DNA of 32,000 nucleotides. It comes from Formosa sp. Hel1_33_131 (GTDB lineage: Bacteria; Bacteroidota; Bacteroidia; Flavobacteriales; Flavobacteriaceae). The position numbers and the translations under genes are program-made. The stretch is taken from NCBI RefSeq assembly GCF_001735745.1, contig NZ_CP017260.1, forward strand, positions 1,260,001 through 1,292,000, written 5' to 3'. The notes beneath the pieces are model-generated. The model had not been told where the DNA came from. It ran no database searches and worked only from the letters and a program-made list of their open reading frames with translations. Below are positions 6,029 through 30,299 of this stretch, piece by piece (the first letter of the stretch is position 1; each line of letters opens with the position of its first letter).

Positions 6029-7495
6029 TTAAACTCGTGGTAAATCACTGTCATCTTTTAAAGGCAATGCCGAACTGCCCATCAAATACGTATCTACATG
6101 GTGCGCTGCCTGTCTTCCCTCAGATATAGCCCACACAATTAAAGATTGTCCGCGACGCATGTCTCCAGCTGCAAATATGCCAGGCACATTAGTTACATAA
6201 TCTTTTGTGGTGGCTTTGATATTAGTTCTAAAATCCATTTCTAAACCAAATTGATCTGCCAATGTTTTTTCAGCTCCAGTAAATCCGAGTGCTAATAATA
6301 CCAAGTCACAGTCCCAAAGTTTTTCGGAGTTGGGAACTTCTTTTAATTCTGGACGTTCGCCTTTTCTAAAAATCCATTCGACCTCAACGGTTTTTAATGC
6401 TTTTAAGTTTCCTTTATCATCTCCAATAAATTCTTTGGTAGAAATACTAAAAAATCGTTCTACGCCTTCTTGGTGAGAAGAGGTTGTTTTAAGCTTCATC
6501 GGCCAATAAGGCCAAGGTTGATTTGCAGGACGTCCTTCAGATGGTTTCGTTAAAATTTCGAAATTCGTGACAGAGGTTGCGCCATGACGGTTGGACGTTC
6601 CAATACAATCGGAGCCTGTATCTCCTCCACCAATGACAATCACATTTTTTCCTTCAGCAGAAAGGATGTCTTTAAAATCTACTAAACCATCCACATATTG
6701 ATTGTTTAGTTTTAAAAATTCCATGGCTTGATATACACCTTTGAGATCCGCACCTGGAATTGGAATGTTTCGTTTGACGGTTGCACCCCCACATAATACC
6801 ACGGCATCAAAATCGGCTTTTAATTGATTTGCATCTAAATTTTTACCTACATGCGCGTCGGTTTTAAAGACAATGCCTTCTTCCTTTAAAACGTTCACAC
6901 GACGGTCGATAACATTTTTTTCCATCTTAAAATCCGGAATTCCATAGCGCAATAACCCACCCACTTTTTTATCACGTTCAAAAACAGTGACGGTATGACC
7001 AGCTCTATTTAGTTGTTGAGCTGCCGCGAGTCCCGCAGGGCCCGATCCAATAACAGCAACGGTTTTGTCGGTTCTTACTTTGGGTGGTTTTGCTGTAATC
7101 CAACCTTCTGTAAAGGCGGTTTCAACAATATTTTTTTCGATATTTTCGATGCTTACCGGATCTTCATTGATTCCTAAAACACACGCTTCTTCGCAAGGTG
7201 CTGGACATAATCTCCCTGTAAATTCTGGAAAATTATTGGTGGAATGTAAAATTTCAGCGGCTTCTTTCCATTTGCCTTTGTAAACTTTATCGTTAAAATC
7301 TGGAATTAAATTCCCCAAAGGACAGCCGCTATGACAAAACGGAATTCCGCAATCCATACATCGTGCACCTTGGTCTTTTAACTTTGATTCTTCTAATGGA
7401 ATTGTAAATTCCTTGTAATTTTTTATTCTTTCTTTTGGCGCTTCATAGGTTTCATCCTGACGCTCAAACTCTAAAAATCCTGTGATCTTTCCCAT
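6029..7495 (-). CDS. gltD: glutamate synthase (NADPH) small subunit
   Basis: 488 aa with N-terminal Cys clusters (CMDCGIPFC, CPLGNLIP, CPAPCEEAC) followed by VIGSGPAGLAAAQQL. Starts 2 nt after the gltB stop. Confidence 0.93.
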   Translation of the reverse strand: MGKITGFLEFERQDETYEAPKERIKNYKEFTIPLEESKLKDQGARCMDCGIPFCHSGCPLGNLIPDFNDKVYKGKWKEAAEILHSTNNFPEFTGRLCPAPCEEACVLGINEDPVSIENIEKNIVETAFTEGWITAKPPKVRTDKTVAVIGSGPAGLAAAQQLNRAGHTVTVFERDKKVGGLLRYGIPDFKMEKNVIDRRVNVLKEEGIVFKTDAHVGKNLDANQLKADFDAVVLCGGATVKRNIPIPGADLKGVYQAMEFLKLNNQYVDGLVDFKDILSAEGKNVIVIGGGDTGSDCIGTSNRHGATSVTNFEILTKPSEGRPANQPWPYWPMKLKTTSSHQEGVERFFSISTKEFIGDDKGNLKALKTVEVEWIFRKGERPELKEVPNSEKLWDCDLVLLALGFTGAEKTLADQFGLEMDFRTNIKATTKDYVTNVPGIFAAGDMRRGQSLIVWAISEGRQAAHHVDTYLMGSSALPLKDDSDLPRV

Positions 7496-7497
7496 CC

Positions 7498-10400
7498 TTA
7501 AACTGTTTCTAGTTGTTCTTTTTCTAATCTTAATAACGCCTGTCTGTATTCTTCTGGCAGTACTTTTTTGAATTTAGGAAGCGTTGCCTCCCAGTTTTCT
7601 AAAATGCGTTTTGCTAAAGGACTTGACGTCGCCACAAAATGATTTTCGATTAATGTTCGTAATTGATTCACATCTTCCTGAAGTTCGATCGGGTCGATAT
7701 TCAAATCTTCACCATTACAATTTTTAGTGAATGTATTGTCTGCATCTAAAACATAGGCAACACCACCACTCATTCCAGCTCCAAAATTTCTTCCGACACT
7801 TCCAAGAATCACCGCAACACCACCAGTCATGTACTCACAACCGTGGTCGCCAATGCCTTCTACAACGGCTTTGGCTCCTGAGTTACGTACACAAAAACGT
7901 TCGCCTGCTTTTCCGTTGATATAAACCTCTCCAGACGTCGCACCATAAAGCGTTACATTCCCTGTGATGATGTTATCTTCTGGAACAATGGTACTTGTTT
8001 CAGGAACTTTGATGATTAATTTTGCACCCGACAATCCTTTTCCGAGATAATCGTTTGTATTTCCATGAACCGTCATGGTCACTCCTTTAGTAGTAAAGGC
8101 TCCAAAACTTTGTCCTGCAGATCCGTTAAAGTCGATGTTTATGGTGTCTTGAGGCAAGCCATCGGCACCGTAAATTTTAGAAATTTCATTACTTAAAACC
8201 GCGCCTACTGCTCTGTCAATATTGGTGATTGGAAGTTTCAAATGTGTACGTTGTCTTCTGAAAATTCCTTGATGTGCTTGTTTGATTATTTTGAAATCTA
8301 AATGGACATCGAGGTTGTGATCTTGTTGCTCAGTGTTGTATAATTTTACATCTTCTGCTACATCTACTTTATGTAAGATTGGTGTTAAATCAATGCCTGA
8401 TGCTTTGTAATGCTCAATCGCTTTGTTGCGGTTTAATTTTTGAACCTGACCTACCATTTCATCCACGGTTTTAAACCCTAGTTGCGCCATGATCTCACGC
8501 AATTCTTGTGCAACGAAATACATATAGTTCACAACATGTTCTGGTTTGCCTTTGAATTTTTTACGCAGCTCTGGGTTTTGAGTTGCAATTCCTACGGGGC
8601 ATGTATTCAAATGACAGACACGCATCATAATACAACCCGAAGCGACTAAAGGTGCGGTTGCAAAACCAAATTCTTCAGCTCCTAAGAGACATGCAATCGC
8701 GACATCACGACCGGTTTTTAACTGGCCATCACATTCCAAAACAATTCGATTTCTCAGATTGTTCATCACCAGTGTTTGTTGTGCTTCTGCAATTCCAAGT
8801 TCCCAAGGAAGTCCACAGTGTTTCAAAGAGGTGAGTGGCGAAGCACCTGTTCCTCCATCAAAACCAGAAACCAATATAACATCTGCTTTGGCTTTTGCGA
8901 CTCCTGCAGCAACGGTTCCTACGCCAATTTCAGAGACTAATTTCACATTAATTCGCGCCGCTCTGTTGGCTGATTTTACGTCGTATATGAGTTGTGATAA
9001 ATCTTCGATCGAATAAATATCGTGGTGTGGTGGTGGAGATATCAATCCAACATAAGGTGTTGAATTTCTTGTTTTCGCGATTTCACGATTTACTTTTGGA
9101 CCGGGCAATTGACCGCCTTCACCGGGTTTAGCACCTTGCGCAATTTTTATTTGAATTTCATTGGCGCTTGTAAGGTAGTTGGAGGTGACTCCAAATCGTC
9201 CGGAAGCGACTTGTTTAATGGCCGAATTTCTCCAATCGCCTTGTGCATTTTTGTAGAAGCGATCTTCGTCTTCTCCGCCTTCACCTGAATTACTTTTTCC
9301 ACCAATTCTATTCATAGCTACCGCTAAGTTTTCATGGGCTTCTTTACTAATAGATCCATAAGACATGGCGCCTGTTTTGAATCGTTTTACGATTTCGGTC
9401 CAAGGTTCTACCTCATCAATCGAAATAGGATCAAATTGATCAAATTCAAACAGACCTCTAATGGTCATCAAGCGTTTTGACTGATCGTCAACAAGCTCTG
9501 AGTATTCTTTAAACGTGGATGCTTTATTGGTACGAACCGATTCTTGAAGCTTCGCGACGGTCAGTGGATTAAACATGTGTTTTTCCTGACCACGACGCCA
9601 TCTATATTCGCCGCCAATTTCAATGTCCGATTCAATGTTTGGGTTGAATGCTTTTTTGTGACGTTTGACAATTTCTTTTTCAATTTCCATCAAACCAATT
9701 CCTTGAATTCTGGTAGGCGTGTTTGGGAAATATTTTTCAACAGTATTCGTATTGATTCCAACACACTCAAATAGTTGAGACCCACGGTAGGAGTTTAAGG
9801 TAGAAATTCCGATTTTATTCATCACTTTCAAGATGCCTTTTCCGATGGCTTTGTTATAGTTCTTGATGGCTGTGAGGTATTCTAAATCTGTAATGTCAGA
9901 GTCTTTGATTTGTTTTTCAACAATTTCATTGACGATGTATGGGTTCACTGCGCTGGCTCCAAAACCAAATAAGAGGGCAAAATGATGCACTTCTCTTGGT
10001 TCTGCGGATTCAATTATCAAACTAATTCTTGAACGTTTGTTGAGTTTATGCAGTGCATGGTTCACGTAGGAACAGGCCAAAAGTGCTGGAATTGGTGCGT
10101 GATTTTCATCTACAAATCGATCGGATAGAATGATGATGTTGGCTCCTTCGTCAATTGCTTTAGATGCTTTGTCAACCAAGGCTTCGAGGGCACTTTCTAA
10201 TTCGTTTAATCCTCGATTGACTTCGTACAACATAGAAATGGATTCTACTTTGAAGTTCGGGTTGGTGTCGTAATTTCTGATTTTATCTAAATCGTGTTTT
10301 GAAATTACAGGGTTTTGAATTTTAAGCTTTTTACAGGCCTCGGAGTTGCAATCAAAAATATTGGTGTCGCTCCCTAGTGTTAAACTAATATCGGTGATTA

Positions 10401-11994
10401 ATTCTTCGCGAATTCCGTCCAAAGGAGGGTTGGTGACTTGCGCGAATATTTGCTTGAAATAATTGTAAATCAGTTGAGGTCGTTCAGACAAAATAGCGAT
10501 TGGCGTATCGCTTCCCATAGAACCAATCGGTTCTTTTCCGAGCTGAGCCATTGGGCGGATAATAGTGTTTATATCCTCTTTGGTATAGCCGAAAGCAACT
10601 TCTCGTTTCTTTAAATCTACTTCCTCATATTCAATAGGACCTTTTTTAGCTGAGATGTCTTTTAAGTGTACTAAGTTTTCGTTCAACCATTTTCTATAGG
10701 GTTGTTTGGCGGCAATCTTTTCTTTGATTTCTTCATCATTGACGATGCGTCCTTCATTCATATCTACCAAAAACATTTTCCCTGGCTCAAGTCGTCCGTG
10801 AAATTCTACTTCTTCTGGTTCAATATCAACCACCCCTGTTTCAGAAGACATGATGACATTTCCGTCTTTAGTTACTGTATAGCGGGAGGGTCTCAAGCCA
10901 TTTCGGTCTAATACGGCTCCAATGAAATTTCCATCGGTGAAGGGTATAGACGCAGGGCCATCCCACGGTTCCATTTGACAGGAGTTGTATTCGTAGAATG
11001 CCTTTTTAGAATCGGACATGTCTGGATTTTTCTCCCAAGCTTCAGGGACTAACATCATCATCACTTCAGGAAGTGAACGTCCCGTCATTAATAATAATTC
11101 AACGACCATGTCTAAGGTTGCTGAATCGGATTTCCCTTTCAGAATTGTAGGGATTATTTTTTTGATGTCATCGCCAAAGGCATCACTTTTTATGATTTCT
11201 TCTCTCGAAAACATACGAGAAACATTTCCTCTTAAGGTATTGATTTCTCCATTGTGACATATATATCGGAATGGCTGTGCCAAATCCCAAGTCGGAAAGG
11301 TATTGGTTGAAAAACGTTGATGTACCAATGCCAATCGGGTGTCTAAGTCCGTATTAAAAAGATCCAGATAATATTCATTGATATGCTCTGGTTTTAGCAA
11401 GCCTTTGAATATGATAATTTTGGTGGAAAGACTTGGAAGGTAAAAGAATTTTGACTCCGATAACTTTGAGTCATATATTGTATGTTCTGATATTTTTCGT
11501 GCAGCGAACAATTTGAGGTTAAAATCAAACTCTGTTTGTTTTGAGTCTGATTTGCCTATAAATACTTGCTTTACAAAAGGCTCAGTTGTTTTGGCAATTT
11601 CTCCTAAAACAGCGCTATTAACAGGGACATCTCTCCAGCCTAAAACATGTAATCCTTGCTTTTTAATTTCGGCTTCAAAAATCTCTATACAGTAGGTTCT
11701 TTGGTTTTCTTTTCGAGGTAAAAATACATTACTCACTGCATAGTCTCCAGCTTCTGGCAATTCAAATTCACAGAATGTTTTGAAAAATTTATGAGGAATG
11801 TCGATCAAAATTCCGGCACCATCACCAGTTACTCCATCGGAACTCACCGCACCTCTATGTTCTAGTTTTACTAAAATTTCTAATGCTTTGTGAATGATAT
11901 CATTCGAACGCTTCCCCGTCAAACTACATATAAATCCTGCACCACAATTATCGTGTTCAAATTCGGGTAAATAAAGTCCTTGCTTTTTTAACAT
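7498..11994 (-). CDS. gltB: glutamate synthase large subunit
   Basis: 1498 aa. It has an Ntn-amidotransferase start (...[10 protein letters not shown]), a central FMN/Fe-S region ([23 protein letters not shown]) and a C-terminal GXGXG-repeat domain ([25 protein letters not shown]). Confidence 0.96.
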   Translation of the reverse strand: [1498 protein letters not shown]

Positions 11995-12152
11995 ACTTAA
12001 AATTGTTTCTGGTTAACCTTAATAAGCATGTAATATAATTGGTAAAAGTCTATTTAGAAAAAAGCCAAGTCACTTTTTCGAAATTCCAATTTAGATTACC
12101 TATAAATGCATTTTGAACAATGAAAGGCATGTTAGACTATCGAATAATCAAC

Positions 12153-12202
12153 GGGGAAATTGGTGGTTTTTCTTTCCCGCGAACCTAGGGGTTCCAAACC
12201 AC
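12153..12202. other. GC-rich nested inverted repeats in the gltB/porin divergent intergenic region
   Basis: Three inverted-repeat pairs: GGGGAAA (12153-12159) with TTTCCC (12173-12178), GTGGTTT (12163-12169) with AAACCAC (12196-12202), and GAACC (12181-12185) with GGTTC (12190-12194). Function unknown. Confidence 0.3.
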
Positions 12203-12269
12203 AAAAAGTAATGATACAAAAGCAACGCACTATTGAAATATCAAAAATATTATAAATATAATTACAATA

Positions 12270-12287
12270 CCCCCAAAATAAAGGGGG
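12270..12287 (+). promoter_or_regulatory. distal C-run/AT-core/G-run box (CCCCCAAAATAAAGGGGG)
   Basis: Same architecture as the boxes at 12322 and 14898 but with an 8-nt core. Its centre is 53 bp upstream of the proximal box centre. Confidence 0.35.
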
Positions 12288-12321
12288 TTAAAATAATTAT
12301 TACATAAAAATGACGCTAATA

Positions 12322-12364
12322 CCCTTATTTTTTAAGGGGGGTATGTCATTTATTATTAGTTTTG
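12322..12364 (+). promoter_or_regulatory. porin-amt promoter candidate: 20-bp box CCCTTATTTTTTAAGGGGGG, 15-nt spacer, -7 box TAGTTTTG
   Basis: TAGTTTTG (12357-12364) matches the Bacteroidota -7 consensus TAnnTTTG, 40 nt before the porin ATG. The box (12322-12341) sits where a -33 element would be. The glnK-amtB promoter has the same layout. Confidence 0.5.
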
Positions 12365-12404
12365 AGCCGTTAACTAAAATTATTAACTACTAAAATTAAC
12401 TATT

Positions 12405-13382
12405 ATGAAAAAAATTATTTTAAGTGCTGTTGCATTCATCGGAGCTTTGTCTCTAAACGCACAGGATGAAGCCCCTAAATTATCCATATCGGGTACTGTT
12501 GATGCTTATTACCAAAGTTACTTGACTGCTTCAGATGATGCATCTGGTTCTTTTGGAACCTCGTTTGCTGATGAAACTGGATTTGCTTTAGGAATGGCCA
12601 ATGTTGTTCTTAGCTATGAAGGTGAAAAAACTGGAGTTGTTGCTGATGTCGTTTTCGGCCCAAGAGCTGATGCTGCTGTTGGAGGTTACAACCTCAACCA
12701 ATTGTATGCTTACTGGAATGTAAGTGAAAACACAACCTTAACAGTGGGTCGTTTTAATACTTTCTTAGGCTATGAAGTCATTTCAGCTGCTGGAAATTTT
12801 AACTACAGTACGTCTTACTTATTCTCAAGCGGTCCTTTTTCTCATGTTGGGTTAAAAGCTGATTTTGCTTTAGGTGAAGATTTTAGCTTGATGTTAGCCG
12901 TCATGAATCCTACAGATGTAAACAACAACGCAACTGGAGATTATGGGTTAGGTGCTCAATTGGGTTATGCTGGTCAATATTTAAACCTTTATTATGACAA
13001 TGATTCTGTATTAGGTTTCGAAATTGACTATACAGGTGGGTTTGATTTATCTGAATCTTTTTTCTTAGGAATCAATGGTGCTTACCAAGTTAGTGACGAT
13101 GCTGGTTTTTACGGCGCTGCACTTTACCCACAGTTAGCAACATCTGAATCTTTTTCTATAGGATTAAGAGGTGAACTTTTTGGACTTCATGCAAAAGATG
13201 TTGATGATTTACCAAGTGTTTTTGCTACGACCTTAACTGGAAGTTACACAGTTGAAAACTTAACAATTAAACCAGAAGTAAGATTAGATTCATGGTCTAA
13301 TGACGAGCCTTATGTTGATACTGACGGTGTTGCTTCTAAGAGCTTAGCAGCATTTACTGTTGCCGCTATTTATTCTTTCTAA
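12405..13382 (+). CDS. outer-membrane beta-barrel porin linked to the ammonium transporter
   Basis: 325 aa with signal peptide MKKIILSAVAFIGALSLNAQ. The sequence is Gly/aromatic-rich with alternating pattern and ends ...FTVAAIYSF, a terminal Phe typical of OM barrels. It lies 32 nt upstream of amt with no terminator between. Confidence 0.8.
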   Translation: MKKIILSAVAFIGALSLNAQDEAPKLSISGTVDAYYQSYLTASDDASGSFGTSFADETGFALGMANVVLSYEGEKTGVVADVVFGPRADAAVGGYNLNQLYAYWNVSENTTLTVGRFNTFLGYEVISAAGNFNYSTSYLFSSGPFSHVGLKADFALGEDFSLMLAVMNPTDVNNNATGDYGLGAQLGYAGQYLNLYYDNDSVLGFEIDYTGGFDLSESFFLGINGAYQVSDDAGFYGAALYPQLATSESFSIGLRGELFGLHAKDVDDLPSVFATTLTGSYTVENLTIKPEVRLDSWSNDEPYVDTDGVASKSLAAFTVAAIYSF

Positions 13383-13414
13383 GGTCAATATTAACCAATC
13401 AAAATATATAATTT

Positions 13415-14704
13415 ATGTCACATTTAATTAACAACTTACCTCTAGTAATTCAAGATGCCGCTGCGGTTGAGAATCTTGCTAGTGCTATCAAAGACGATAT
13501 GGGGATGTTATGGATGCTTATTGCAGGTATCTTAGTATTCTTCATGCAAGCAGGTTTTACTTTAGTAGAATCAGGAATGACACGTTCAAAAAATGCAGTG
13601 AATATCGCAATGAAAAACTTGCTTGATATTGCTGTAGGATCTCTTACCTACTGGTTTGTAGGATACTCTCTCATGTACGGAGACACAACCAATGGTTGGT
13701 TCTTCTGGAGTGGAATTATGCAAGGTGAAGGTGCTGATTTATTCTTCCAAACAATGTTTGCCGCCACTGCTGCAACGATTGTTTCTGGAGCAATTGCTGG
13801 AAGAACAAAGTACTCAACGTACATTATCTTTTCAATCGTAATGACTGCTATTATCTACCCAATTGCAGGTGGATGGCAATGGCAAGGATCAGGTTGGTTG
13901 ACTGAGCTCGGTTTTATTGACTTCGCTGGTTCTTCAATCGTGCATGCCGTCGGTGGTTTTGCTGCTTTAGTGGCTGCTTATATGGTAGGTCCTAGAATTG
14001 GAAAATACGTAAACGGAAAAGTAATGCCTATTCCAGGACACAACCAGATATTAGCAACCTTAGGGGTGTTTATCCTTTGGTTGGGATGGTTTGGTTTTAA
14101 CGGTGGATCTCAACTTGCTTGGGGTGGAGACGATGCGGTTGCCGCTTCAACAGTGGTGTTGATCACGAATCTTGCTGCTGCTGCAGGTGCGTTAGGCGCG
14201 CTTATTACGACTTGGATCTGGTACGGTAAGCCAAATTTAGCGCAATCTTTAAATGGAGCGTTAGCTGGATTGGTGAGTATTACTGCAGGTTGTGGAAACA
14301 TGACAGCTGGTGGTGCTGTATTGGCCGGACTCATTGGTGGTATCATTGTGGTGTTCTCTATCGAATTTATCGAAAAGAAACTTAAAATTGATGATGCTAT
14401 TGGTGCTGCTTCTGTTCACGGAATCGTTGGATTCTGGGGAACAATCGTGATTGGACTTTGGGGTGTTGACGGAGACGCTGGACTTGGAATCTTCAACGGT
14501 GGTGGATCTGCACAACTTGTTGCACAACTGACTGGAGGATTGGCATATGCTGTATGGGCTGTTGTTCTTTCTTTTGTAGTGTTTGGAATCCTTAAGTACA
14601 CTGTTGGATTAAGAGTTACTGAAGAAGAAGAAGTTGCTGGACTTGATATCTCTGAACACGGATCTATTGCATATCCTGGAAAAAGAGAAAGAGGTCAAGA
14701 CTAA
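13415..14704 (+). CDS. amt: ammonium transporter (Amt family), copy 1
   Basis: 429 aa with Amt motifs FFMQAGFTLVESG, DFAGSSIVHAVGG and AASVHGIVGFWGT (twin-His pore). Confidence 0.95.
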   Translation: MSHLINNLPLVIQDAAAVENLASAIKDDMGMLWMLIAGILVFFMQAGFTLVESGMTRSKNAVNIAMKNLLDIAVGSLTYWFVGYSLMYGDTTNGWFFWSGIMQGEGADLFFQTMFAATAATIVSGAIAGRTKYSTYIIFSIVMTAIIYPIAGGWQWQGSGWLTELGFIDFAGSSIVHAVGGFAALVAAYMVGPRIGKYVNGKVMPIPGHNQILATLGVFILWLGWFGFNGGSQLAWGGDDAVAASTVVLITNLAAAAGALGALITTWIWYGKPNLAQSLNGALAGLVSITAGCGNMTAGGAVLAGLIGGIIVVFSIEFIEKKLKIDDAIGAASVHGIVGFWGTIVIGLWGVDGDAGLGIFNGGGSAQLVAQLTGGLAYAVWAVVLSFVVFGILKYTVGLRVTEEEEVAGLDISEHGSIAYPGKRERGQD

Positions 14705-14776
14705 CTTCAATATAGTATTGAGCGTTTAAATGCTCTCAAAAAATTAAAAATAAGTTTGTGATTTTTAGTTTGTGTT

Positions 14777-14817
14777 AAAAACCCTAGGGGCTCGCGCTTC
14801 TGGGGTTTTTATTTTTT
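14777..14817 (+). terminator. rho-independent terminator after amt copy 1
   Basis: AAAAACCCTAG (14777-14787) pairs with CTGGGGTTTTT (14800-14810) with one mismatch, followed by ATTTTTT. Confidence 0.7.
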
Positions 14818-14897
14818 AATTATTTTAGACAACAAACCTGACATACCTTCATGATAAATGGGTTAATTTTATTAATATCATAAAAATATTACACACA

Positions 14898-14940
14898 CCC
14901 CTCTATTTATTAGGGGGATCTTTGTTTTTAATTACTTTTG
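14898..14940 (+). promoter_or_regulatory. glnK-amtB promoter candidate: 20-bp box CCCCTCTATTTATTAGGGGG, 15-nt spacer, -7 box TACTTTTG
   Basis: TACTTTTG (14933-14940) matches TAnnTTTG, 23 nt before the glnK ATG. The box (14898-14917) has the same length and offset as the one at 12322. Confidence 0.5.
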
Positions 14941-14963: not shown

Positions 14964-15302
14964 ATGAAAAAAGTAGAGGCAATCATTAGAAAATCTAAGT
15001 TTTCTGGTGTCAAAAAAGCACTGCACGAAGTCGGTGTCAATTTCTTTTCCTATTGGGACGTTACTGGCCTAGGAAACGAAAAAGAAGGCCATGTGTACAG
15101 GGGTGTTTCTTATAGCACGAGTGATATTCAAAGACGTTATTTATCTATTGTCGTGAACGATGATTTTGAAGAGGCAACGATCAAAGCCATCCTAACAGCT
15201 GCCTCAACAGGTGAGGTTGGCGATGGGAAAATTTTTGTATCACAGGTCGATGAAGTATATAGAATTAGAACCGGCGAAAAAGGCGGAAACACATTAAAAT
15301 AA
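14964..15302 (+). CDS. glnK: nitrogen regulatory protein P-II
   Basis: The ORF track starts at a TTG (14922). The ATG at 14964 gives a 112-aa protein, MKKVEAIIRKSKFSGVKKALHEVGV...GHVYRGVSY...TGEVGDGKIFVSQVDEVYRIRTGE, with P-II T-loop YRG and B-loop GDGKIF motifs. It lies 5 nt upstream of amtB. Confidence 0.92.
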   Translation: MKKVEAIIRKSKFSGVKKALHEVGVNFFSYWDVTGLGNEKEGHVYRGVSYSTSDIQRRYLSIVVNDDFEEATIKAILTAASTGEVGDGKIFVSQVDEVYRIRTGEKGGNTLK

Positions 15303-15307
15303 CAACA

Positions 15308-16549
15308 ATGGAATTACTTACTATCAATAACGTATGGATGATGATCTGTACGGCACTCGTCTTTTTTATGCATACCGGATTTGCGTTTCTCGAAATCGGA
15401 CTCACACGTCAAAAAAACACGATTAATATTTTATTTAAAAACATCTTTATTATCACGGCAGGACTTTTACTTTATTATGTCGTCGGCTTTAACTTAATGT
15501 ACCCAGGTGATTTTAATGGCGTCCTTGGATTTGCAGGTTTTGGATTGGATGCACCTTTAGCAGACGGAGCTTTTGATTTAGCATATAGCGAAGGCTATAC
15601 CTATTGGACTGACTTTTTATTCCAAGGTATGTTTGCCGCAACGGCTGCTACCATTGTTTCAGGTGCTGTCGCAGAGCGCATGAAAATTGGTGCTTTTATG
15701 ATTTTCACGGTCTTCTATGTAGGATTCGTGTATCCAATTGCGGGATCTTGGCAATGGGGTGGTGGATTTTTATCCTCATTAACTATTGGAGAAGCCGAAG
15801 GCTTTTATGACTTTGCAGGATCTACACTTGTACACTCTGTGGGTGGATGGGCTGCTTTGGTGGCTGTTTACCTTCTCGGTTCACGTATTGGGAAATTTAA
15901 CAACGGAAAGCCACAGGCTATTCCTGGGCACAGCATTCCATTAGCAACGGCTGGGGTTCTTATTCTTTGGTTAGGATGGTTTGGTTTTAACGGAGGATCT
16001 GTACTCTCTGCTGATCCAGAAGCAACGTCCTTAACGTTGGTAACGACTTGTTTGGCTGCTGCTGCGGGTGGTGTCATCGCAATGATTACCTCAACACTTT
16101 TATACAAAAACTTAGATTTAACAATGTTCCTGAATGGAATTTTAGGAGGTCTTGTAGGAATTACGGCGGGTGCCGATCAGATGAGTCCAGGAGATGCAAT
16201 TCTGATTGGAGCGATCGCTGGAGCACTTATTGTATTTGCCGTGAGCTTGGTCGATAAAATAAAGTTAGACGATCCCGTAGGTGCCATTGCGGTACACCTT
16301 ATTTGTGGAATTTGGGGAACCTTAGCGGTGGGTCTTTTTGGAGCCAAAGCAGGCTTTGATCAATTTCTAGTTCAACTTGTAGGGGTTCTGTGTTACGGCG
16401 TATTTTGTGTCGCAACCTCTTTTATTATTATATACACCTTAAAGAAAACAGTGGGTATTAGAGTTTCGGAGCGTGAAGAGCTCGAAGGGCTTGATGCACA
16501 CGAACATAAAATGGATGCTTACCCCGATTTCAGGTTAAATGAGCACTAA
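15308..16549 (+). CDS. amtB: ammonium transporter (Amt family), copy 2
   Basis: 413 aa with motifs FFMHTGFAFLEIG, DFAGSTLVHSVGG and AIAVHLICGIWGT. Forms the classic glnK-amtB pair. Confidence 0.95.
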   Translation: MELLTINNVWMMICTALVFFMHTGFAFLEIGLTRQKNTINILFKNIFIITAGLLLYYVVGFNLMYPGDFNGVLGFAGFGLDAPLADGAFDLAYSEGYTYWTDFLFQGMFAATAATIVSGAVAERMKIGAFMIFTVFYVGFVYPIAGSWQWGGGFLSSLTIGEAEGFYDFAGSTLVHSVGGWAALVAVYLLGSRIGKFNNGKPQAIPGHSIPLATAGVLILWLGWFGFNGGSVLSADPEATSLTLVTTCLAAAAGGVIAMITSTLLYKNLDLTMFLNGILGGLVGITAGADQMSPGDAILIGAIAGALIVFAVSLVDKIKLDDPVGAIAVHLICGIWGTLAVGLFGAKAGFDQFLVQLVGVLCYGVFCVATSFIIIYTLKKTVGIRVSEREELEGLDAHEHKMDAYPDFRLNEH

Positions 16550-21664: not shown

Positions 21665-22828
21665 ATGAATCTGATACAATATCCTACTATTTATCTTGAA
21701 CAAAAAACGCACAAAAAAGAAAGTCAGCTTTTACTGAAATTTTCTTTTGACAACACGTTAATAGGGCTTATTAAATCTATAAGAGGCACTCATTGGAGTA
21801 AAACCATGAATGCTTGGTACCTTAAAAATTCCGAAGAGAATTTATCACTTATTTTAGAATTATTTAAAGGTGTTACTAAGGTAGATACCTCAAAAGTTAT
21901 CAAAAAAACACACTTCAAAAGAAACTTAACAGAATCACAAAGAAAATTGTTAAATGCTTTTTATTTATTCTTGAAAGGTAAACGGTACAGCAAAAGCACC
22001 ATACAAACCTATACTTTTTTTATAGCAGACTTTATAAATTTTCATACAAAGACACCCATAGAAGAACTTACAAACAGAGATGTAGAACTATTTATAGAAA
22101 CCGTTTTTATAGAACGAAAGTATTCTGTTAGTTCGCAAAGACAATTTATAAGTGCCTTAAAGATATTTACTACTTTTTGTCCGCAAACAAAGATTAATGA
22201 TTTGTCTTTAGAGCGACCAAAAAAATCTAGAATACTTCCTAATATATTGTCTCAAGAAGAGGTGATAAGAATTATACAATACACACAAAACATAAAGCAT
22301 AGGGCTATTTTAACTTTAATATATTCTTGTGGATTGCGAATAGGAGAGCTTATCAATTTAAAATTAGTTGATTTTCATATTGAAAGAAAGCAACTTATTG
22401 TAAAAGAAGGAAAAGGCAGAAAAGACAGGTTTGTAAGTCTAGCAGATAGTTTTCTCCCGTTGTTATCTAACTATTATTCTTCTTATAAACCAACAATCTA
22501 TTTTGTTGAAGGACAAAATGGAGGTAAGTATAGTGCTGAAAGTATTCGAAGTTTTTTAAGAAAAAGCTGTAAAAAGGCAGGTATAAAAAAGCCTGTAACA
22601 CCACATACATTAAGGCATAGTTATGCTACACATTTGTTAGAAAATGGAGTAGATTTAAGATACATACAATCTTTATTGGGTCATTCAAAACCCGAAACTA
22701 CTATGATTTATACCCATGTACAAAGAAAAGATTTAATGGAAATACAAAATCCTTTGGATGTGGCATTACAAAAATTAAATAAAATAAATAATAACAAACA
22801 AAAAGTTGTGTTATCCCGTAATATATAA
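21665..22828 (+). CDS. tyrosine-type site-specific recombinase/integrase heading the accessory island
   Basis: 387 aa. Catalytic residues are all readable: R in CGLRIGELINL, K in EGKGRKDRFVSL, H-x-x-R in HTLRHSYATHL, H in LLGHSKPETT and Y in MIYTHV. An N-terminal SAM-like/core-binding region precedes them. Confidence 0.92.
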   Translation: MNLIQYPTIYLEQKTHKKESQLLLKFSFDNTLIGLIKSIRGTHWSKTMNAWYLKNSEENLSLILELFKGVTKVDTSKVIKKTHFKRNLTESQRKLLNAFYLFLKGKRYSKSTIQTYTFFIADFINFHTKTPIEELTNRDVELFIETVFIERKYSVSSQRQFISALKIFTTFCPQTKINDLSLERPKKSRILPNILSQEEVIRIIQYTQNIKHRAILTLIYSCGLRIGELINLKLVDFHIERKQLIVKEGKGRKDRFVSLADSFLPLLSNYYSSYKPTIYFVEGQNGGKYSAESIRSFLRKSCKKAGIKKPVTPHTLRHSYATHLLENGVDLRYIQSLLGHSKPETTMIYTHVQRKDLMEIQNPLDVALQKLNKINNNKQKVVLSRNI

Positions 22829-22838
22829 CCGTTAACAC
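22826..22838 (+). other. minimal TAAC-C-GTTA-ACAC junction overlapping the recombinase stop codon (attI-like candidate)
   Basis: TAACCGTTAACAC. TAAC/GTTA form an inverted pair around one base. The following TAACAC matches the first 6 nt of the left ends of the 188/189-bp elements. Confidence 0.35.
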
Positions 22839-22884
22839 ACCCTTTTGTTGACATATAACTAGTTACCCATCATTAAAAAAAACT

Positions 22885-23484
22885 ATGATTTGGAATAAAC
22901 TTCCACATTGCGATAAATTATTTGAGAAGTTTCTCAGTCCTTGGTATCCAGAAAACGAGAGACCAAAAATGACTCGTCCGGATATGTGTGTAATATCAGG
23001 GTATGAAGACAAAACCTTGGACATTGACAAAATCCAATATCTAACCAAAGAAGGCTTAAAGGAGACAAAAGATATTTTTAATACCATGAGAGAATCCTAT
23101 CAAAGAGACTTTCAAAATTTCAAAGAATTCAAAGAACTGGATTTGGACGTAATAGATTCAGTTGACAAAGCATTTGATAAAAAAGAAGTAAAAGAGCTCA
23201 TCAAAATGAGTGACCCTAAAGATTTCGGAAACGGGTACTTAGTTACTGTTTGTGAATTCGGTTTGGCTCTTGGTGACTTATTCGTCCAAACTGGAAAATT
23301 TAAATGGCTTTATTCATATCCATATTTTCATTCAATTGTTGTCAACCCTGAAACAGGACAAGGAATAACAGTGTTTGATTGGGCTGTTAAAAAATTCAGT
23401 TCTTATGGAATCGATGATGGCTATAAATGGAAGTTTATGAAAGTAATGGAATTGATAGAAGAAGACATTAAAAACGTTGGGTAA
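22885..23484 (+). CDS. hypothetical protein, first cassette-like ORF
   Basis: 199-aa ORF on the array strand with no family recognised by eye. Its TAA stop (23482-23484) is the first 3 nt of repeat element 23482-23669. Confidence 0.7.
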   Translation: MIWNKLPHCDKLFEKFLSPWYPENERPKMTRPDMCVISGYEDKTLDIDKIQYLTKEGLKETKDIFNTMRESYQRDFQNFKEFKELDLDVIDSVDKAFDKKEVKELIKMSDPKDFGNGYLVTVCEFGLALGDLFVQTGKFKWLYSYPYFHSIVVNPETGQGITVFDWAVKKFSSYGIDDGYKWKFMKVMELIEEDIKNVG

Positions 23485-23669
23485 CACTGTATATAGCAAA
23501 TAGGGCGTTCGGTGGTTTACGAGAGTTCATTGCTATTTACCAACACCACCAAATCGTTGATTTGGCTTTTAAAATGAATAAATTAAAAACAAAATACAAC
23601 GCTTTGGCTCAGTGCAAACTTGAAAGTTTATCACTTTCTACTGCCCTACATGCCTTATACTAAACGTTA
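23482..23669 (+). repeat. 188-bp element with imperfect terminal inverted repeats (attC-like candidate), copy 1
   Basis: Left end is TAACACTGTATATAGCAAATAGGGC (23482-23506) and right end is GCCCTACATGCCTTATACTAAACGTTA (23643-23669). It is homologous end to end with 30487-30675. Confidence 0.75.
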
Positions 23670-23837
23670 TACCCAATTCAAAAAATATTTTCCTAAGAGA
23701 TAAAACAATGATAGACTTTCTAAAGGGGAAATAGATTTGATTTTTTCTAAAACAAAAGAAGGAGGGATAATAGATTTCTCCGCTACCGCTTCGAAATGAA
23801 TAATTTTATAAATTTTTAATTTTTAACCTTAATTACT

Positions 23838-24440
23838 ATGATAAATATTTTTAATAAGTTTTTTGAAAAAAAATATATGCTTGAAAAAACAAGTAAAATG
23901 TTAGATGAGAATGTATTTTGGGATATCATTGATTTGTCTTTAAAAAATACAAATAATAAAGATAGTCAAGAAATTTTTTTAGTTAAAGAAATTCAAAAGT
24001 TAAGTCCAGAAGAAATAATTGGTTTTAGACTCAGGACTGATAAATTGTTATATGACACTTATAACTCAGAAATGTGGTGCGCAGGATATTTGATGAACGG
24101 AGGTTGTTCCGATGATGGGTTTGAATATTTTAGAAATTGGGTTATTTCAAGAGGAAAAGATACTTATTATAATGCTAAAAATAATTCTGATTCACTAATC
24201 AGTGAAATAGCAGATGAAGATGAATATGAATATGATTTTGAAAGTTTTTGGTATGTTGCATTAACTGCATTTGAAAACAAAACAGGAAAAGAATTATATG
24301 ATTATATATCAGATGACTTTAAAACAAATGAAGGAAATTATCCTCAATTTGAATTTAATTGGGAAGAAGAAAAACCTGAAACCATGAAGTCTATATGCCC
24401 CAAGTTATTTGAAAAGTTTTGGAATTTCAAATTAGTTTAA
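23838..24440 (+). CDS. DUF4240-like protein
   Basis: 200 aa. FWDIIDLS near the N-terminus and EMWCAGYLMNGGCSDDGFEYFRNWVISRGKDTYYNA match my memory of the DUF4240 signature. Confidence 0.8.
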   Translation: MINIFNKFFEKKYMLEKTSKMLDENVFWDIIDLSLKNTNNKDSQEIFLVKEIQKLSPEEIIGFRLRTDKLLYDTYNSEMWCAGYLMNGGCSDDGFEYFRNWVISRGKDTYYNAKNNSDSLISEIADEDEYEYDFESFWYVALTAFENKTGKELYDYISDDFKTNEGNYPQFEFNWEEEKPETMKSICPKLFEKFWNFKLV

Positions 24441-24450
24441 GTAAAATAAC

Positions 24451-24981
24451 ATGAGCAAGACAGCTGCTGAGCTAATGGCTGAATTAGCAAACAATAAAGA
24501 GTATCTAGATAAGAAAAAAAGGCAAGATGAGAAATTTGCTAATTTAGAAAAAATTTATACTGAAGATGAGCGTAAATTAGTTGCCGAATTAAGTAAATCG
24601 GGCTATCCAGTTCGATCGGTTTGGGATTTTGTTAATTCTGATAATTACTATTTAGGCGCAGTGCCTATTTTAATAAATCATTTGAAGGCTAAGCATCACC
24701 CTAAAATACTAGCTGGATTGGCGAGGTCATTGGCAGTTGCTGAGCTTTCAAGCAACGATGAACTTTGGGAGCTATTATTAAATCTTTATGATCAGACTCT
24801 TTCAGATTCTGAAATTAGTGTTCCAGAAGAACGTGGTGCGCAAGAATCCATCGCCGTAGCACTAGAATGCTTAGCTATCAGCTCCAGAGCTGATGGTCTT
24901 AAGAAACTTATAAGCAGAAATCCCAAAGGAGATGGAGTTCGCTGGCTTAAAGATAAATTAAAATATTTTTGTCAAAATTAA
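24451..24981 (+). CDS. hypothetical protein, helical-repeat-like
   Basis: 176-aa ORF, 10 nt after the previous stop on the same strand. No family recognised by eye. Confidence 0.7.
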   Translation: MSKTAAELMAELANNKEYLDKKKRQDEKFANLEKIYTEDERKLVAELSKSGYPVRSVWDFVNSDNYYLGAVPILINHLKAKHHPKILAGLARSLAVAELSSNDELWELLLNLYDQTLSDSEISVPEERGAQESIAVALECLAISSRADGLKKLISRNPKGDGVRWLKDKLKYFCQN

Positions 24982-24991
24982 CATTCAAATC

Positions 24992-25477
24992 ATGAACAAA
25001 AGAACTGTTACAAAAGTCGGTGATATTTTTGAAGTAGTAATCGAAGAGGGTTATAAAAAATATATTCAATTGGTTGCCATAGATAGCCATCAATTAAATA
25101 GTGATGTTATTTGTGTTTTTGAAACAAAATATCGTTTCGACGAAAAACCATCAATTGATTTAATCACTTCAGATAGAATGGATTTCTATACACATACAAC
25201 AGTTAGCGCAGGGGTAAAATGGCTGGATTGGGTAAAAATAGGAAGAAGTGATGAATTAGGGCGGTTAGATAATTTAATTTTTAAACACACAGATGACTAC
25301 GGACATGGAGTAGAGCAATCTAACTTTTGGAGAGTATGGGGAGTAAGTGGTAAAATTTATCGCATAGGAAATCTTACAGATCAATATCGAAAGACTGAGT
25401 ATGGCCTTATTTTCTCCCCGGAAAGTGTGGTCGAAAGAATGCGTACAGGAGAGGTTGACCCATACTACCCCGGCTGA
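24992..25477 (+). CDS. hypothetical protein, possible polymorphic-toxin immunity protein (K-x-GDIF N-terminus)
   Basis: 161-aa ORF, 10 nt after the previous stop. The N-terminal TKVGDIFEVVIEEG motif resembles PKKGDIFFINIDGVG in ORF 26907-27395. The Imm26-like assignment is from memory only. Confidence 0.7.
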   Translation: MNKRTVTKVGDIFEVVIEEGYKKYIQLVAIDSHQLNSDVICVFETKYRFDEKPSIDLITSDRMDFYTHTTVSAGVKWLDWVKIGRSDELGRLDNLIFKHTDDYGHGVEQSNFWRVWGVSGKIYRIGNLTDQYRKTEYGLIFSPESVVERMRTGEVDPYYPG

Positions 25478-25635
25478 TTGGTAATTTTTCCGTAAAATGA
25501 CTGATGTGAGATGCAAAAATTGCTCAAAGAAAATTTTATGAACTTAAAAGAGCTCGATATATGTTAAACTTTAATACTATTTATTTAGATGAGTCTGATA
25601 GAAAAACGAATAATTTCTAAAACCTATAAACAAGC

Positions 25636-26169
25636 ATGTTCAAAACAATACAATTCAAAGATGTTTTCCCAGAGCATTTTGGTTTCTTTCTGATGAGTCC
25701 TAAAAAACTGTCAACTTTTCATGATTTTGGTATAGAAGGTAAAAACCTTCTAGAAATTTACTCCAATTCAGACTTAGGGGATAAAGTAACTGAAGAGGGT
25801 ATTATCATTCCTATTTTGGAAGTTGAAGCTGATTATTATGATATAATTATTCATGATAAAGCAGAAGCAAGTTATATAGAAGACACCAAGAGAGCTTTCT
25901 CCTCACAAGGATGGATATTTTTTTCTACTGGAGAATTAATTTTTTCGAGTATTTCTCTTTTACTTAAGTGGGACTCAGACCATCCAAAGCTTTGTAATGC
26001 AAACCTTCCTAAAGGCTGGTACGAAGTATCTATTTATGGAGGGCTGGTTAAAGAAACCCCCACCTTTGAATTTGTATTTACTAAGTCTGATAAAAAACCT
26101 CAATACAATGGAAACTTAAATGAATTAAACCTCCGAGGTGTAGGAGTTTATAAAGTTAAAGAATTGTAA
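25636..26169 (+). CDS. hypothetical protein; weak resemblance to ComJ/Nin-type nuclease-inhibitor immunity proteins
   Basis: 177-aa ORF. The segments FPEHFGFFLM and LPKGWYEVSIYGG recall the ComJ pattern (QFTVF ... LPKGDYQL) as I remember it. This is unverified. Confidence 0.65.
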   Translation: MFKTIQFKDVFPEHFGFFLMSPKKLSTFHDFGIEGKNLLEIYSNSDLGDKVTEEGIIIPILEVEADYYDIIIHDKAEASYIEDTKRAFSSQGWIFFSTGELIFSSISLLLKWDSDHPKLCNANLPKGWYEVSIYGGLVKETPTFEFVFTKSDKKPQYNGNLNELNLRGVGVYKVKEL

Positions 26170-26195
26170 TTTATGTTAAAATTAATATTCAGATT

Positions 26196-26735
26196 ATGAA
26201 AAAAATCGACCCATTTAAAATACTTGGTACTGCTGTGAATAGTAAAAAGCAACAGCCACTAGAAGAAATTGTAATTATTGCAAGCCCTCAAACATTAAGA
26301 GAAATCGCCGTATTTCTGATTAATGCTGCTTATGAGATGGAGGTCAATGACTTTGATCATATGCATCTTCAGGATTCAATAGCTAATTTTTCATCGAAGA
26401 AGCATGCTGATATTATTGCTCACATAGATTACGATACGTCAAATCCAAAAAAATCTCTTGAGAAAAAAACTAATGAAAAATAAACAAAACAACTCATTAC
26501 ACATATTCGAGAGTCTTTATATAACCTAGGTTGGCTTATTAAAATAAATTTAGAAGATACTCAGTACAAAAATATTAAAATAAAAATTTTTGAAAGAGGT
26601 AACATAGATAATAAAGATGACTGGATTCATTGTAAGATTGAAAATAAAATATTCGAAGGTGCTTGTGGACCATTAAACCTAATCGAACTAATTCAATGTT
26701 TTAAGAATATAATAGAAGAACAAAAACTTGGTTAA
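26196..26735 (+). pseudogene. hypothetical gene split by a single in-frame TAA (95 codons, stop, then 83 open codons)
   Basis: ORF 26196-26483 ends in TAA (26481-26483). The same frame then stays open for 83 codons (TKQLITHIRESLYNLGWLIKINLEDTQYKNIKIKIFERGNIDNKDDWIHCKIENKIFEGACGPLNLIELIQCFKNIIEEQKLG) to the TAA at 26733-26735. No ATG/GTG/TTG occurs in that stretch. Confidence 0.55.
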
Positions 26736-26906
26736 AAAATTCATATTAACTAACGTAAGATTATTGCTATATTTAGTAGGTAGTCCAGCTTGTTTTGGTT
26801 TGTATCCTTGGGATGAATTTTATGATTCAAACTATTTTGATATGCTGCTTGTATCACTCAACAAAAAAATTTATGGAATAACTTATAAATAATAATTTTA
26901 ACATCT

Positions 26907-27395
26907 ATGAAACTAAGTGAATTACATTCTAAAATGAATGGCGGAAAACGAAGATTAAAACCCAAAAAAGGAGATATATTTTTCATTAACATTGATGGTG
27001 TTGGGCACATACCAGGGATGGTAGCCAAGGATGACATGAAATATGGCAGCACTCCATGTTTCTTGATATACATATATAATATTGTATTGAATCACAAGAA
27101 TGAGAAGTTTGAGATCAACAAAGGCGATTTGTTGATGCCTCCCTGCATGGTGCTAAGAAATAACTGGGAGCCAACTATTGGGTTTGAGCATCAATTTACT
27201 CTTGAAACTGATAAGATTGATGTTTTCCTCAACCACTGCTTTGGTGACGACGTACAGCCTGGAATTTATTTTGACGAATTTCAGAATCGATGCGAATATT
27301 TCGAACCATTCGCAGATAATTCGCTAGTTAACGTTACTGTGATTGCCTGGAAAATCATGAAAATAGTCAATGGAATAGAGGTTGAGAGGGATTGA
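26907..27395 (+). CDS. hypothetical protein, possible immunity protein (K-x-GDIF N-terminus)
   Basis: 162-aa ORF on the array strand. The N-terminal LKPKKGDIFFINIDGVGHIPGMV is shared with ORF 24992. Confidence 0.7.
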   Translation: MKLSELHSKMNGGKRRLKPKKGDIFFINIDGVGHIPGMVAKDDMKYGSTPCFLIYIYNIVLNHKNEKFEINKGDLLMPPCMVLRNNWEPTIGFEHQFTLETDKIDVFLNHCFGDDVQPGIYFDEFQNRCEYFEPFADNSLVNVTVIAWKIMKIVNGIEVERD

Positions 27396-27432
27396 ATTTT
27401 TTAAATAGAGGGTTATTTATCTTTCATTAAGA

Positions 27433-27630
27433 TTGAAAGGTTTGTACCAAGAAATAGGGTTACAGACAAAATCAAAATATTTTAGTAAATCAAAGTCTAA
27501 TTTTGCAGATTTAGCGGATTTCAAATTCGAGAAAATGACTACGGATTATTTAGATATTTACCATAAGATTAACGAGTCGGATATGAAAAGTATTTTGAAT
27601 TTTGCGATTTATTTATATCACATGAGATGA
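27433..27630 (+). CDS. small hypothetical ORF (TTG start), doubtful
   Basis: 65 aa, lysine-rich, with a non-ATG start. Its TGA stop lies 5 nt before the TAAC of the short site at 27636. Confidence 0.3.
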   Translation: MKGLYQEIGLQTKSKYFSKSKSNFADLADFKFEKMTTDYLDIYHKINESDMKSILNFAIYLYHMR

Positions 27631-27635
27631 AGGAA

Positions 27636-27652
27636 TAACGGCGCACAACACC
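27636..27652 (+). repeat. left part of a short TAACGG...CCGTTA site interrupted by the IS
   Basis: TAACGGCGCACAACACC. The partner half is at 29371-29424, and the 10-bp GCACAACACC is repeated on both sides of the IS. Confidence 0.45.
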
Positions 27653-27657
27653 GGTAA

Positions 27658-29370: not shown

Positions 29371-29424
29371 GCACAACACCTATACGCAATGCCCTTCGGG
29401 ACACTGCGCATAGCCAAACCGTTA
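29371..29424 (+). repeat. right part of the short TAACGG...CCGTTA site
   Basis: GCACAACACCTATACGCAATGCCCTTCGGGACACTGCGCATAGCCAAACCGTTA. The terminal CCGTTAT is the inverted complement of ATAACGG at 27635-27641. The trailing GTTATGCTCAATT resembles GTTATACCCAATT at 23666-23678. Confidence 0.45.
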
Positions 29425-29435
29425 TGCTCAATTAA

Positions 29436-29762
29436 ATGCAAAGACCAATAAAAAATATATGGATTGAGAGTGAAGACAAAGGAGCAATTATTGGCGGAAC
29501 TGAGGAAATAAATGACAATTCTGATGTAATTGTGACTTTTGATGATAAAAGTAAATATGTTGCTACATTCTTTACCTACGATAATATCGAGTATCTAAGA
29601 CAGAAGAATAGACAAACTGGTGAATGTCTAGATGGACGATTTTTCTGGGCTTCTGATATGATAATTATTGAAAGAATTAATAGAAAGGAAGTTGTAGAAA
29701 TTATTGAACACCTTATCAAAGAAAAAGAGTTTGAATCTATTTTTGACCAAATCACTGAATAA
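29436..29762 (+). CDS. hypothetical protein (108 aa)
   Basis: ORF begins 12 nt after the short site. No family recognised. It lies 3 nt upstream of the zinc-ribbon ORF. Confidence 0.65.
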   Translation: MQRPIKNIWIESEDKGAIIGGTEEINDNSDVIVTFDDKSKYVATFFTYDNIEYLRQKNRQTGECLDGRFFWASDMIIIERINRKEVVEIIEHLIKEKEFESIFDQITE

Positions 29763-29765
29763 TAA

Positions 29766-30002
29766 ATGGCTACTCAAATCTGTCCTAACTGCAAAAAAGA
29801 TTCATTTACTTGGAGCATAGATGAAGAAGAATCTCCTTTAACATACTGGGGATGCTACGAATGTAAATATGGAGCATACGAAGACGAATCTAAAGAAAGA
29901 ATCTGTAGTAATTGTGAAAAGAAAACAGAAAGTAGATTGAAAGATGAAGAGAAAGAATATTGGTGGTGTTCCAGCTGTAACTCTATATCAGAAATCAACT
30001 AA
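29766..30002 (+). CDS. small double zinc-ribbon protein
   Basis: 78 aa with four CxxC pairs (CPNCKK, CYECKY, CSNCEK, CSSCNS) in ribbon-like spacing. Confidence 0.65.
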   Translation: MATQICPNCKKDSFTWSIDEEESPLTYWGCYECKYGAYEDESKERICSNCEKKTESRLKDEEKEYWWCSSCNSISEIN

Positions 30003-30203: not shown

Positions 30204-30210
30204 AAAACAA

Positions 30211-30299
30211 ATGTCATCTAATAATATGACATTTTTGTCATACAAAAGTTTGACAACTCAATTTGAATTACTATGTTTGTCATATAAATAGTTGACAAT
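30211..30299. promoter_or_regulatory. operator-like repeats between the divergent XRE and SymE-like genes
   Basis: Palindrome ATGTCAT-N8-ATGACAT (30211-30232), plus two about 24-nt direct repeats: TTTGTCATACAAAAGTTTGACAAC (30234-30257) and TTTGTCATATAAATAGTTGACAAT (30276-30299). Confidence 0.55.

Follow-up and report, generated by a model that had tools for sequence, protein, structure and literature searches.

A phased CCC-N11-GGG dyad upstream of nitrogen-assimilation genes in Flavobacteriales and Bacteroidales, a putative operator of an unidentified nitrogen regulator

Both ammonium-transporter operons in a 32,000-nucleotide stretch of the Formosa sp. Hel1_33_131 genome (hereafter the window) are preceded by copies of a short dyad, CCC-N11-GGG, which recurs with fixed geometry upstream of nitrogen-assimilation genes in other Flavobacteriales and in Bacteroidales. 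It is very probable that a nitrogen regulator docks at these boxes, although this conclusion is drawn from sequence comparison and there are no binding data. Taken as a whole, i.e. with its activator and repressor modes together, the interpretation of the boxes as protein operators is one in which we place high confidence, as both modes make use of one and the same operator. The more specific proposal, that the boxes are operators of a twofold-symmetric, sequence-specific regulator of nitrogen assimilation, most likely an activating one and common to Flavobacteriales and Bacteroidales, we regard as evenly poised between right and wrong.

The first of the two operons (12405-14704, + strand) comprises genes for a BBP2 (OmpL-like) porin (12405-13382) and an ammonium transporter (13415-14704), and the second (14964-16549, + strand) comprises glnK, encoding a P-II protein of 112 AA (14964-15302), and amtB (15308-16549). 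Divergent from the porin promoter, on the - strand, lie gltB (7498-11994) and gltD (6029-7495); all of these assignments are backed by Pfam. The closest relative found was an uncultured Dokdonia, whose GlnK shows 96% identity. The first-pass annotation had described a 20-bp box upstream of each operon, followed at exactly 15 nt by a TAnnTTTG sequence, and had counted 13 identical positions of 20 between the two boxes. Direct reading and a recount bore this out: upstream of glnK, 15 nt separate CCCCTCTATTTATTAGGGGG (14898-14917) from the downstream TACTTTTG (14933-14940), and upstream of the porin gene, the same number separates CCCTTATTTTTTAAGGGGGG (12322-12341) from the downstream TAGTTTTG (12357-12364), with 13/20 positions shared by the two 20-mers. 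Both boxes are thus real, but they are not the full set, as a scan for C-run/G-run pairs identified a third one that had been overlooked. This distal porin box, CCCCCAAAATAAAGGGGG (12270-12287, strandless, A-rich on the + strand), is located 51-52 bp upstream of the proximal porin box, with 34 nt in between.

The extent of the conserved unit was defined from 80 Flavobacteriales loci picked through GlnK alone. Upstream of glnK, many genera were found to carry one or two boxes of the type taCCCCTAAAATTTTAGGGGta, and the motif is likewise kept upstream of orthologous amt and porin genes across many Flavobacteriales genera, a lack of which would have spoken against the original observation. The pattern CCC-N11-GGG fits 91 of 94 related boxes, compared to 64 for an N10 and 61 for an N12 spacer, and what is truly conserved is a dyad of 17 bp, whose spacer is A/T almost throughout, rather than a box of 20 bp, even though the 20-mers are present where they had been placed. 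A gap between C-run and G-run that varied from 8 to 11 nt had at first hinted at a loose hairpin; when run length was corrected for, a single N11 frame was obtained. In the weight matrix, the CCC and GGG arms are invariant and carry the information, A/T accounts for at least 92% at spacer positions 6-13, and the flanks contribute weakly (A/C on the 5' side, G/T on the 3' side), the centres of the two arms being 14 bp apart. Within this frame, the proximal box of glnK-amtB has the core CCCTCTATTTATTAGGG at 14899-14915 (strandless, inside the 20-mer 14898-14917 and fitting CCC-N11-GGG), and that of porin-amt has the core CCCTTATTTTTTAAGGG at 12322-12338 (strandless, inside the 20-mer 12322-12341). 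Counted from the 17-mer, the -7 box is then offset by 17 nt (glnK) and 18 nt (porin gene), the most common and second most common values of the family; the earlier figure of exactly 15 nt holds only when counted from the ends of the 20-mers, and came about because these end in G-runs of unequal length.

Of 27 intervals between successive boxes, 25 measure 52-54 bp. The most frequent interval, 53 bp, amounts to five helical turns, so that the upstream copies face the same side of the helix; five loci (L051, L120, L132, L148 and L184) have arrays of three or four. The remainder of the promoter is similarly regular. Among 175 distinct promoters, 87 have an exact TAnnTTTG 15-19 nt after the 17-mer (at 17 nt in 49 and at 18 nt in 23), and in 89 a further element, ATAAAAAT with no more than one mismatch, begins 17-20 nt upstream of the proximal box. 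An alignment of 25 gltB/porin intergenic regions, which are otherwise divergent, shows the boxes, the midway ATAAAAAT and the -7 box as conserved islands, with ATAAAAAT being the most conserved 10-nt bin (0.86 column majority) and the porin proximal box and its -7 box both standing out as conserved blocks. In the window, ATAAAAAT is found at 14880-14887 (+ strand), 19 nt upstream of the proximal glnK box, and at 12304-12311 (+ strand), between both porin boxes and with 18 nt from it to the proximal one, both offsets being modal for the family. The element could represent a bend, a seat for the alpha subunit of RNA polymerase or a site for a second protein. Upstream of glnK, CCTTCATGATAAATGGG at 14846-14862 (strandless) is a possible degenerate distal box: it lies exactly 53 bp upstream of the proximal box, which is the mode of the family, yet its CCC arm deviates at one position, its spacer contains G/C, and taken alone it is weak.

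It could be argued that the boxes merely resemble one another by chance, or that they belong to a dispersed repeat (REP or MITE-like) without any link to nitrogen genes, given that the window is A/T-rich (37% G+C) and contains short C-runs and G-runs elsewhere. Counts within the window contradict this: CCCY-N11-RGGGG occurs at two sites against 0.11 expected, with none of 100 shuffles reaching the observed count, and CCCNNW7NNGGG occurs at three distinct sites, again against 0.11 expected. In the glnK-selected Flavobacteriales loci together with the window, we compared box density between DNA at most 250 nt upstream of glnK, amt or porin genes, other intergenic DNA, and coding DNA, and obtained 3.07, 0.033 (just three boxes in 92 kb) and 0.0025 boxes per kb, respectively. 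The motif is therefore not equally frequent in background sequence, the possibility that would have refuted the first-pass proposal; its density upstream of nitrogen genes exceeds that of the remaining intergenic DNA in these loci some 90-fold. Furthermore, public metagenome contigs were scanned in a context-blind manner, for two boxes 35-37 nt apart and without any gene information, which yielded at least 119 arrays; 101 of the 119 arrays listed have a nitrogen-gene target at most 260 nt downstream. With the site count, the enrichment and the metagenome scan all pointing the same way, chance or a dispersed repeat is effectively refuted and we attach next to no weight to it.

The 119 listed arrays also outline the predicted regulon. 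They lie upstream of glnK (45), the BBP2 porin gene (34), a small Gcw_chp-like porin gene (9), amt (5), the gene for glutamine synthetase type III (GSIII; 5), the alanine dehydrogenase gene ald (2) and a divergent GSII/GSIII pair (1); 15 are at a contig edge or have no gene within 260 nt, and 3 precede other genes. The identities of the GSIII, GSII and alanine dehydrogenase targets are backed by Pfam. By exact-sequence look-ups, the boxed GSIII genes were placed in Bacteroides (B. heparinolyticus cluster) and Paludibacteraceae, boxed amtB in Bacteroidales, ald in Flagellimonas/Muricauda and GSII in Tenacibaculum. In Bacteroides, the GSIII promoter follows the matching layout of a box, ATAAAAAA, a second box, 19 nt and TAATTTTG. 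With boxes upstream of GSIII and amtB genes on Bacteroidales contigs, the element spans at least Flavobacteriales and Bacteroidales. The glnN promoters of two Paludibacteraceae loci (L135, 4367-4437; L169, 770-840) are organized differently, in that the only exact TAnnTTTG lies between both boxes and no consensus -7 box follows the proximal box in either promoter. This TAnnTTTG occupies the place usually taken by ATAAAAAT, and may point to a different architecture or to a variant of the central A/T element. Of a separate nature is a gene of the isochorismatase family (cysteine hydrolase, by Pfam), which is divergent from or beside a boxed small-porin promoter in five loci (L081, L111, L114, L149 and L186); possibly it is an extra member of the regulon that releases ammonia from an amide.

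A GC stem enclosing an A/T loop is also what an RNA hairpin looks like, and the boxes might accordingly be terminators, attenuators, structures of the 5' UTR or, at the DNA level, cruciforms. A scan for terminator-like sequences did flag one box ('box A', + strand) as well as the distal porin box (- strand), and the predicted RNA folding energy averages -8.2 kcal/mol for the boxes and is -8.0 to -11.4 kcal/mol for the three in the window. However, the arms are invariant and hence devoid of compensatory variation, and the five inner symmetric pairs are complementary in proportions of 0.27-0.54 compared to 0.40-0.52 in column shuffles, i.e. no higher than expected and mostly lower. The rigid N11 frame is unlike a loop of free length, G/C is excluded from the spacer, and phasing at 53 bp belongs to duplex DNA. 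With respect to position, the boxes are found upstream of a conserved sigma-A -7 box, and those of the gltB/porin region are located between divergent genes where there is nothing to terminate. The actual intrinsic terminator of the porin-amt operon, a 16-pair stem followed by a T-run, is found separately at 14776-14811 (+ strand), where it sets the operon apart from the glnK promoter, so that the glnK box is not that terminator. Finally, Rfam gave no match at gathering thresholds over the whole window and none below E=0.4 for 11950-12450. The absence of stem covariation and of an Rfam match, together with the rigid frame, speaks for a site read by a protein and against an RNA hairpin; given the two flagged boxes and the non-trivial folding energies, we consider the hairpin highly unlikely but not impossible.

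The position of the boxes relative to the promoter is informative with respect to what kind of protein might read them. In Flavobacterium psychrophilum, the TAnnTTTG box covers -12 to -5 (PMC9723704), and applying this convention to the -7 boxes of the window, which both lie on the + strand, predicts a start at about 14945 for glnK-amtB, with a 19-nt leader to the ATG at 14964, and at about 12369 for porin-amt, with a 36-nt leader to the porin ATG at 12405. From these predicted starts, the proximal boxes would extend from about -47 to -30 with centres at approximately -38 (glnK) and -39 (porin), ATAAAAAT would be at about -62 and the distal porin box at about -91. Of the two hallmarks of a sigma-A promoter, the TAnnTTTG at -12 to -5 is thus present and a TTTG or TTG near -33 is not; as had been pointed out in the first-pass annotation, the usual TTTG is missing, and the window promoters instead have the T-tract/G-run junctions TTAG and TAAG at the expected place. 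The same is seen in the wider family, where TTG occurs at frame positions 13-15 in only 4 of 38 proximal boxes. Conceivably, the boxes are part of the promoter itself and are read by RNA polymerase, as an UP-like element or through an alternative sigma factor, without any separate regulator. The fixed distance to the -7 box and the richness of the -40 to -60 region in A/T and A-tracts would be in line with such an element, but the -7 box conforms to the sigma-A consensus (PMC9723704), and no -24/-12 pattern of sigma-54 is apparent in the two window promoters by reading, in the absence of a formal scan. Moreover, neither sigma nor alpha reads DNA in the form of a symmetric site that is repeated up to four times at 53-bp steps and, in its upstream copies, in either A/T orientation. 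A role as a pure polymerase element hence appears to us very improbable.

We therefore return to the protein operator. The boxes comply with what is expected of a dyad operator, namely a fixed geometry that is conserved across species and a restriction to the promoters of a coherent regulon. The suggestion that had been made at the outset, a dimeric regulator overlapping the -33 region as either a class II-type activator or a repressor, agrees with the 17-bp frame, the 53-bp phasing and the offset of 17-18 nt, all of which fit a protein bound to one face of the helix; binding, the dimer and the sign of regulation have not been demonstrated. According to the activating mode, the regulator would occupy the boxes under nitrogen limitation and, from the position of a class II activator, would recruit or stabilise RNA polymerase, with upstream copies acting cooperatively as in class III promoters. 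The outcome would be joint induction of porin-amt and glnK-amtB and, elsewhere, of the genes for GSIII, GSII, alanine dehydrogenase and small porins. Protein binding, start sites, direction of regulation and signal are all matters of inference in this scheme. Activation is favoured because most proximal boxes lack TTG at -33 and because the distance from box to -7 box is tight.

The same operator may, however, serve a repressor, which we consider a weaker but serious possibility. NrpR, AmtR and the GlnR of Bacillus are repressors that leave when nitrogen is scarce, and a protein of this kind would use the proximal copy to block sigma-A at -33, with the upstream in-phase copies stabilising the complex via cooperativity or via a short bent loop over the central A-tract. 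Several features could be taken in its support: the operator lies over roughly -47 to -30, the -7 box departs little from the consensus, and proximal boxes keep a TT[A/T]G junction at about -35 to -32, where sigma-A would read the -33 element. The proximal boxes are also T-rich on the gene strand (27 vs 9) and the distal ones are unbiased (25 vs 26), and this orientation, together with the TT[A/T]G, suggests a working core promoter underneath the operator. In the two Paludibacteraceae glnN promoters, one box even lies downstream of the only consensus -7 box. Conversely, TTAG and TAAG do not contain the TTG core of the -33 element, which makes the core promoters look weak, and a very tight distance between box and -7 box is more typical of activators that touch RNA polymerase. 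Activation thus remains the reading that we prefer, but it should be noted that the Paludibacteraceae promoters with TAnnTTTG between the boxes count against it and that the T-rich proximal boxes fit occlusion equally well. It also counts against our interpretation that the arms are 14 bp apart, which is unusual for helix-turn-helix dimers, as these typically use 10-12 bp between arm centres.

Comparison with known systems is instructive in this regard. NtcA, the CRP/FNR-family regulator of cyanobacteria, binds GTA-N8-TAC, a site at -41.5 that stands in for the -35 element, and in terms of function an NtcA-type class II promoter is the closest analogue: in both cases a dyad replaces the upstream hexamer of a housekeeping-sigma promoter at a fixed stereospecific distance to the downstream promoter element, and the regulon covers amt, glnA/GS and P-II genes. 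The boxes differ from NtcA sites in their CCC-N11-GGG sequence and in having arms 14 bp apart rather than about 11 bp, in their recurrence at 53 bp with an A-tract between them, in the -33/-7 type of promoter and in that the family of the regulator is unknown. The CCC/GGG weight matrix does not accommodate half-sites of NtcA or CRP type (GTA-N8-TAC or TGTGA-N6-TCACA), and the predicted box centre, with the start inferred from the -7 box, is at -38/-39, compared to about -41.5 for NtcA and CRP/FNR class II. Class III CRP/FNR promoters of E. coli, with sites near -41.5 and at about -91 to -93, are reminiscent of the boxes at about -38/-39 and -91, in that a second site lies in phase some five turns upstream, and by analogy the A/T element between the boxes could seat the alpha C-terminal domain, an inference for which there is no evidence of alpha contact. 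Unlike these promoters, the boxes lack CRP-type half-sites and form arrays of up to four copies. With respect to length and A/T centre, the nearest analogue is TnrA/GlnR of Bacillus, members of the MerR family that bind the 17-bp TGTNA-N7-TNACA, control amtB-glnK (nrgAB) and glutamine synthetase and have two sites at some promoters. The arm sequence, however, does not agree, TnrA-activated sites are centred near -49 to -51 without any 53-bp phasing, and the phylum is another one. For the repressor mode, the tandem operators of NrpR from methanogens (GGAA-N6-TTCC), from which the repressor is released by 2-oxoglutarate, provide the best model, as they have G/C-rich arms around an A/T-rich spacer and are found at nitrogen-assimilation promoters. 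NrpR sites nevertheless measure 14 bp as opposed to 17 bp, their arms differ in sequence and polarity, and they belong to archaeal promoters of the TATA/BRE type. G/C clamps 14 bp apart across an A-tract hence match none of the nitrogen regulators compared here (NtcA, TnrA/GlnR and NrpR), and are not known from NtrC, AmtR or actinobacterial GlnR either.

We found no published description of the motif and no named nitrogen regulator for Bacteroidota in the open-access full-text literature, searches for the literal motif strings included, in agreement with the statement of the first-pass annotation that no operator of this sequence has been described in the phylum; subscription papers and regulon databases such as RegPrecise were outside the scope of this search. 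A recent review on gut nitrogen assimilation and another on model Bacteroides likewise name no transcriptional nitrogen regulator of the phylum. We would give an even chance, and no more, to the idea that Bacteroidota have a master nitrogen regulator which has so far escaped identification, and that the boxes are its operator. Common to marine Flavobacteriales and to Bacteroidales of gut and rumen, this regulator would assemble as a phased multi-dimer complex at every five turns, and would point to a new family or to a known one put to a new use. As Bacteroidota are dominant degraders in the ocean and in the gut, it matters that the gap concerning their nitrogen regulator becomes a direct experiment, in which the 17-mer may be used as bait for the regulator in tractable Bacteroides or in Flavobacterium johnsoniae. 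Both the clarity of the signal and its breadth within the phylum are unusual, and one predicted regulon joins outer-membrane porins, ammonium transporters, P-II, GSIII/GSII and alanine dehydrogenase. This regulon can be predicted genome by genome, and the promoter may constitute a compact nitrogen-responsive part for genetic tools.

In search of the regulator itself, all ORFs of 199 loci were clustered to find recurrent neighbours of the boxes. In these loci, no DNA-binding gene recurs next to the boxes and none is located directly downstream of a box; recurrent neighbours encode CrcB, a PRA-PH-like protein and an aminotransferase-like protein, among others. Three candidates were considered and rejected. 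An AsnC/Lrp gene is present in 16 loci at a distance of about 5 kb, in the same synteny block and without a box, and a gene for a REC-AAA sigma-54 activator without a DNA-binding domain is present in eight, also without a box; both may reflect synteny only. A LacI-type gene, found in five loci, was likewise unconvincing. The sigma-54 AAA+ response regulator (387 AA; 10936-12099 in L196, and in seven further loci) is encoded within a few kb of glnK, and no evidence from these eight loci links it to the boxes. A scan of the remaining window ORFs brought up a single helix-turn-helix protein, which is paired with an AbiEii toxin. We also noted a 449-AA membrane protein encoded divergently from a boxed glnK promoter in four loci (L047, L060 and two more) on contigs of Schleiferiaceae and Cryomorphaceae type; its features are a signal sequence at the N terminus, a single predicted transmembrane segment and a C-terminal tail of about 90 AA, and it is without a Pfam match.

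Whether the boxes of the gltB/porin region also act on gltB is possible but unproven. Throughout the 25-locus alignment, there is no consistent minus-strand -7 box adjoining the distal box. Between distal box and gltB ATG there are 276 nt in the window and about 305-320 nt in most genera, a steadiness that suggests a long, length-constrained gltB leader or upstream region (11995-12270). In the gltB-proximal half of this intergenic region, a nested inverted repeat, GTGGTTT...GAACC-tagg-GGTTC...AAACCAC, is found at 12164-12202, and the palindrome CGAAAACGTTTTCG or a close variant recurs in the aligned gltB/porin region of several other genera; the repeat might serve gltBD as a second site of regulation.

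Downstream of the nitrogen genes, the window contains a stretch resembling a mobile element (21665-31945). In addition to several ORFs without a Pfam match, it encodes a tyrosine integrase (21665-22828), a DUF4240 protein, a DDE transposase (27724-28926) with a preceding DUF772 fragment (28942-29298), and an HTH_3/DUF6922 and AbiEii pair at 30784-31945.
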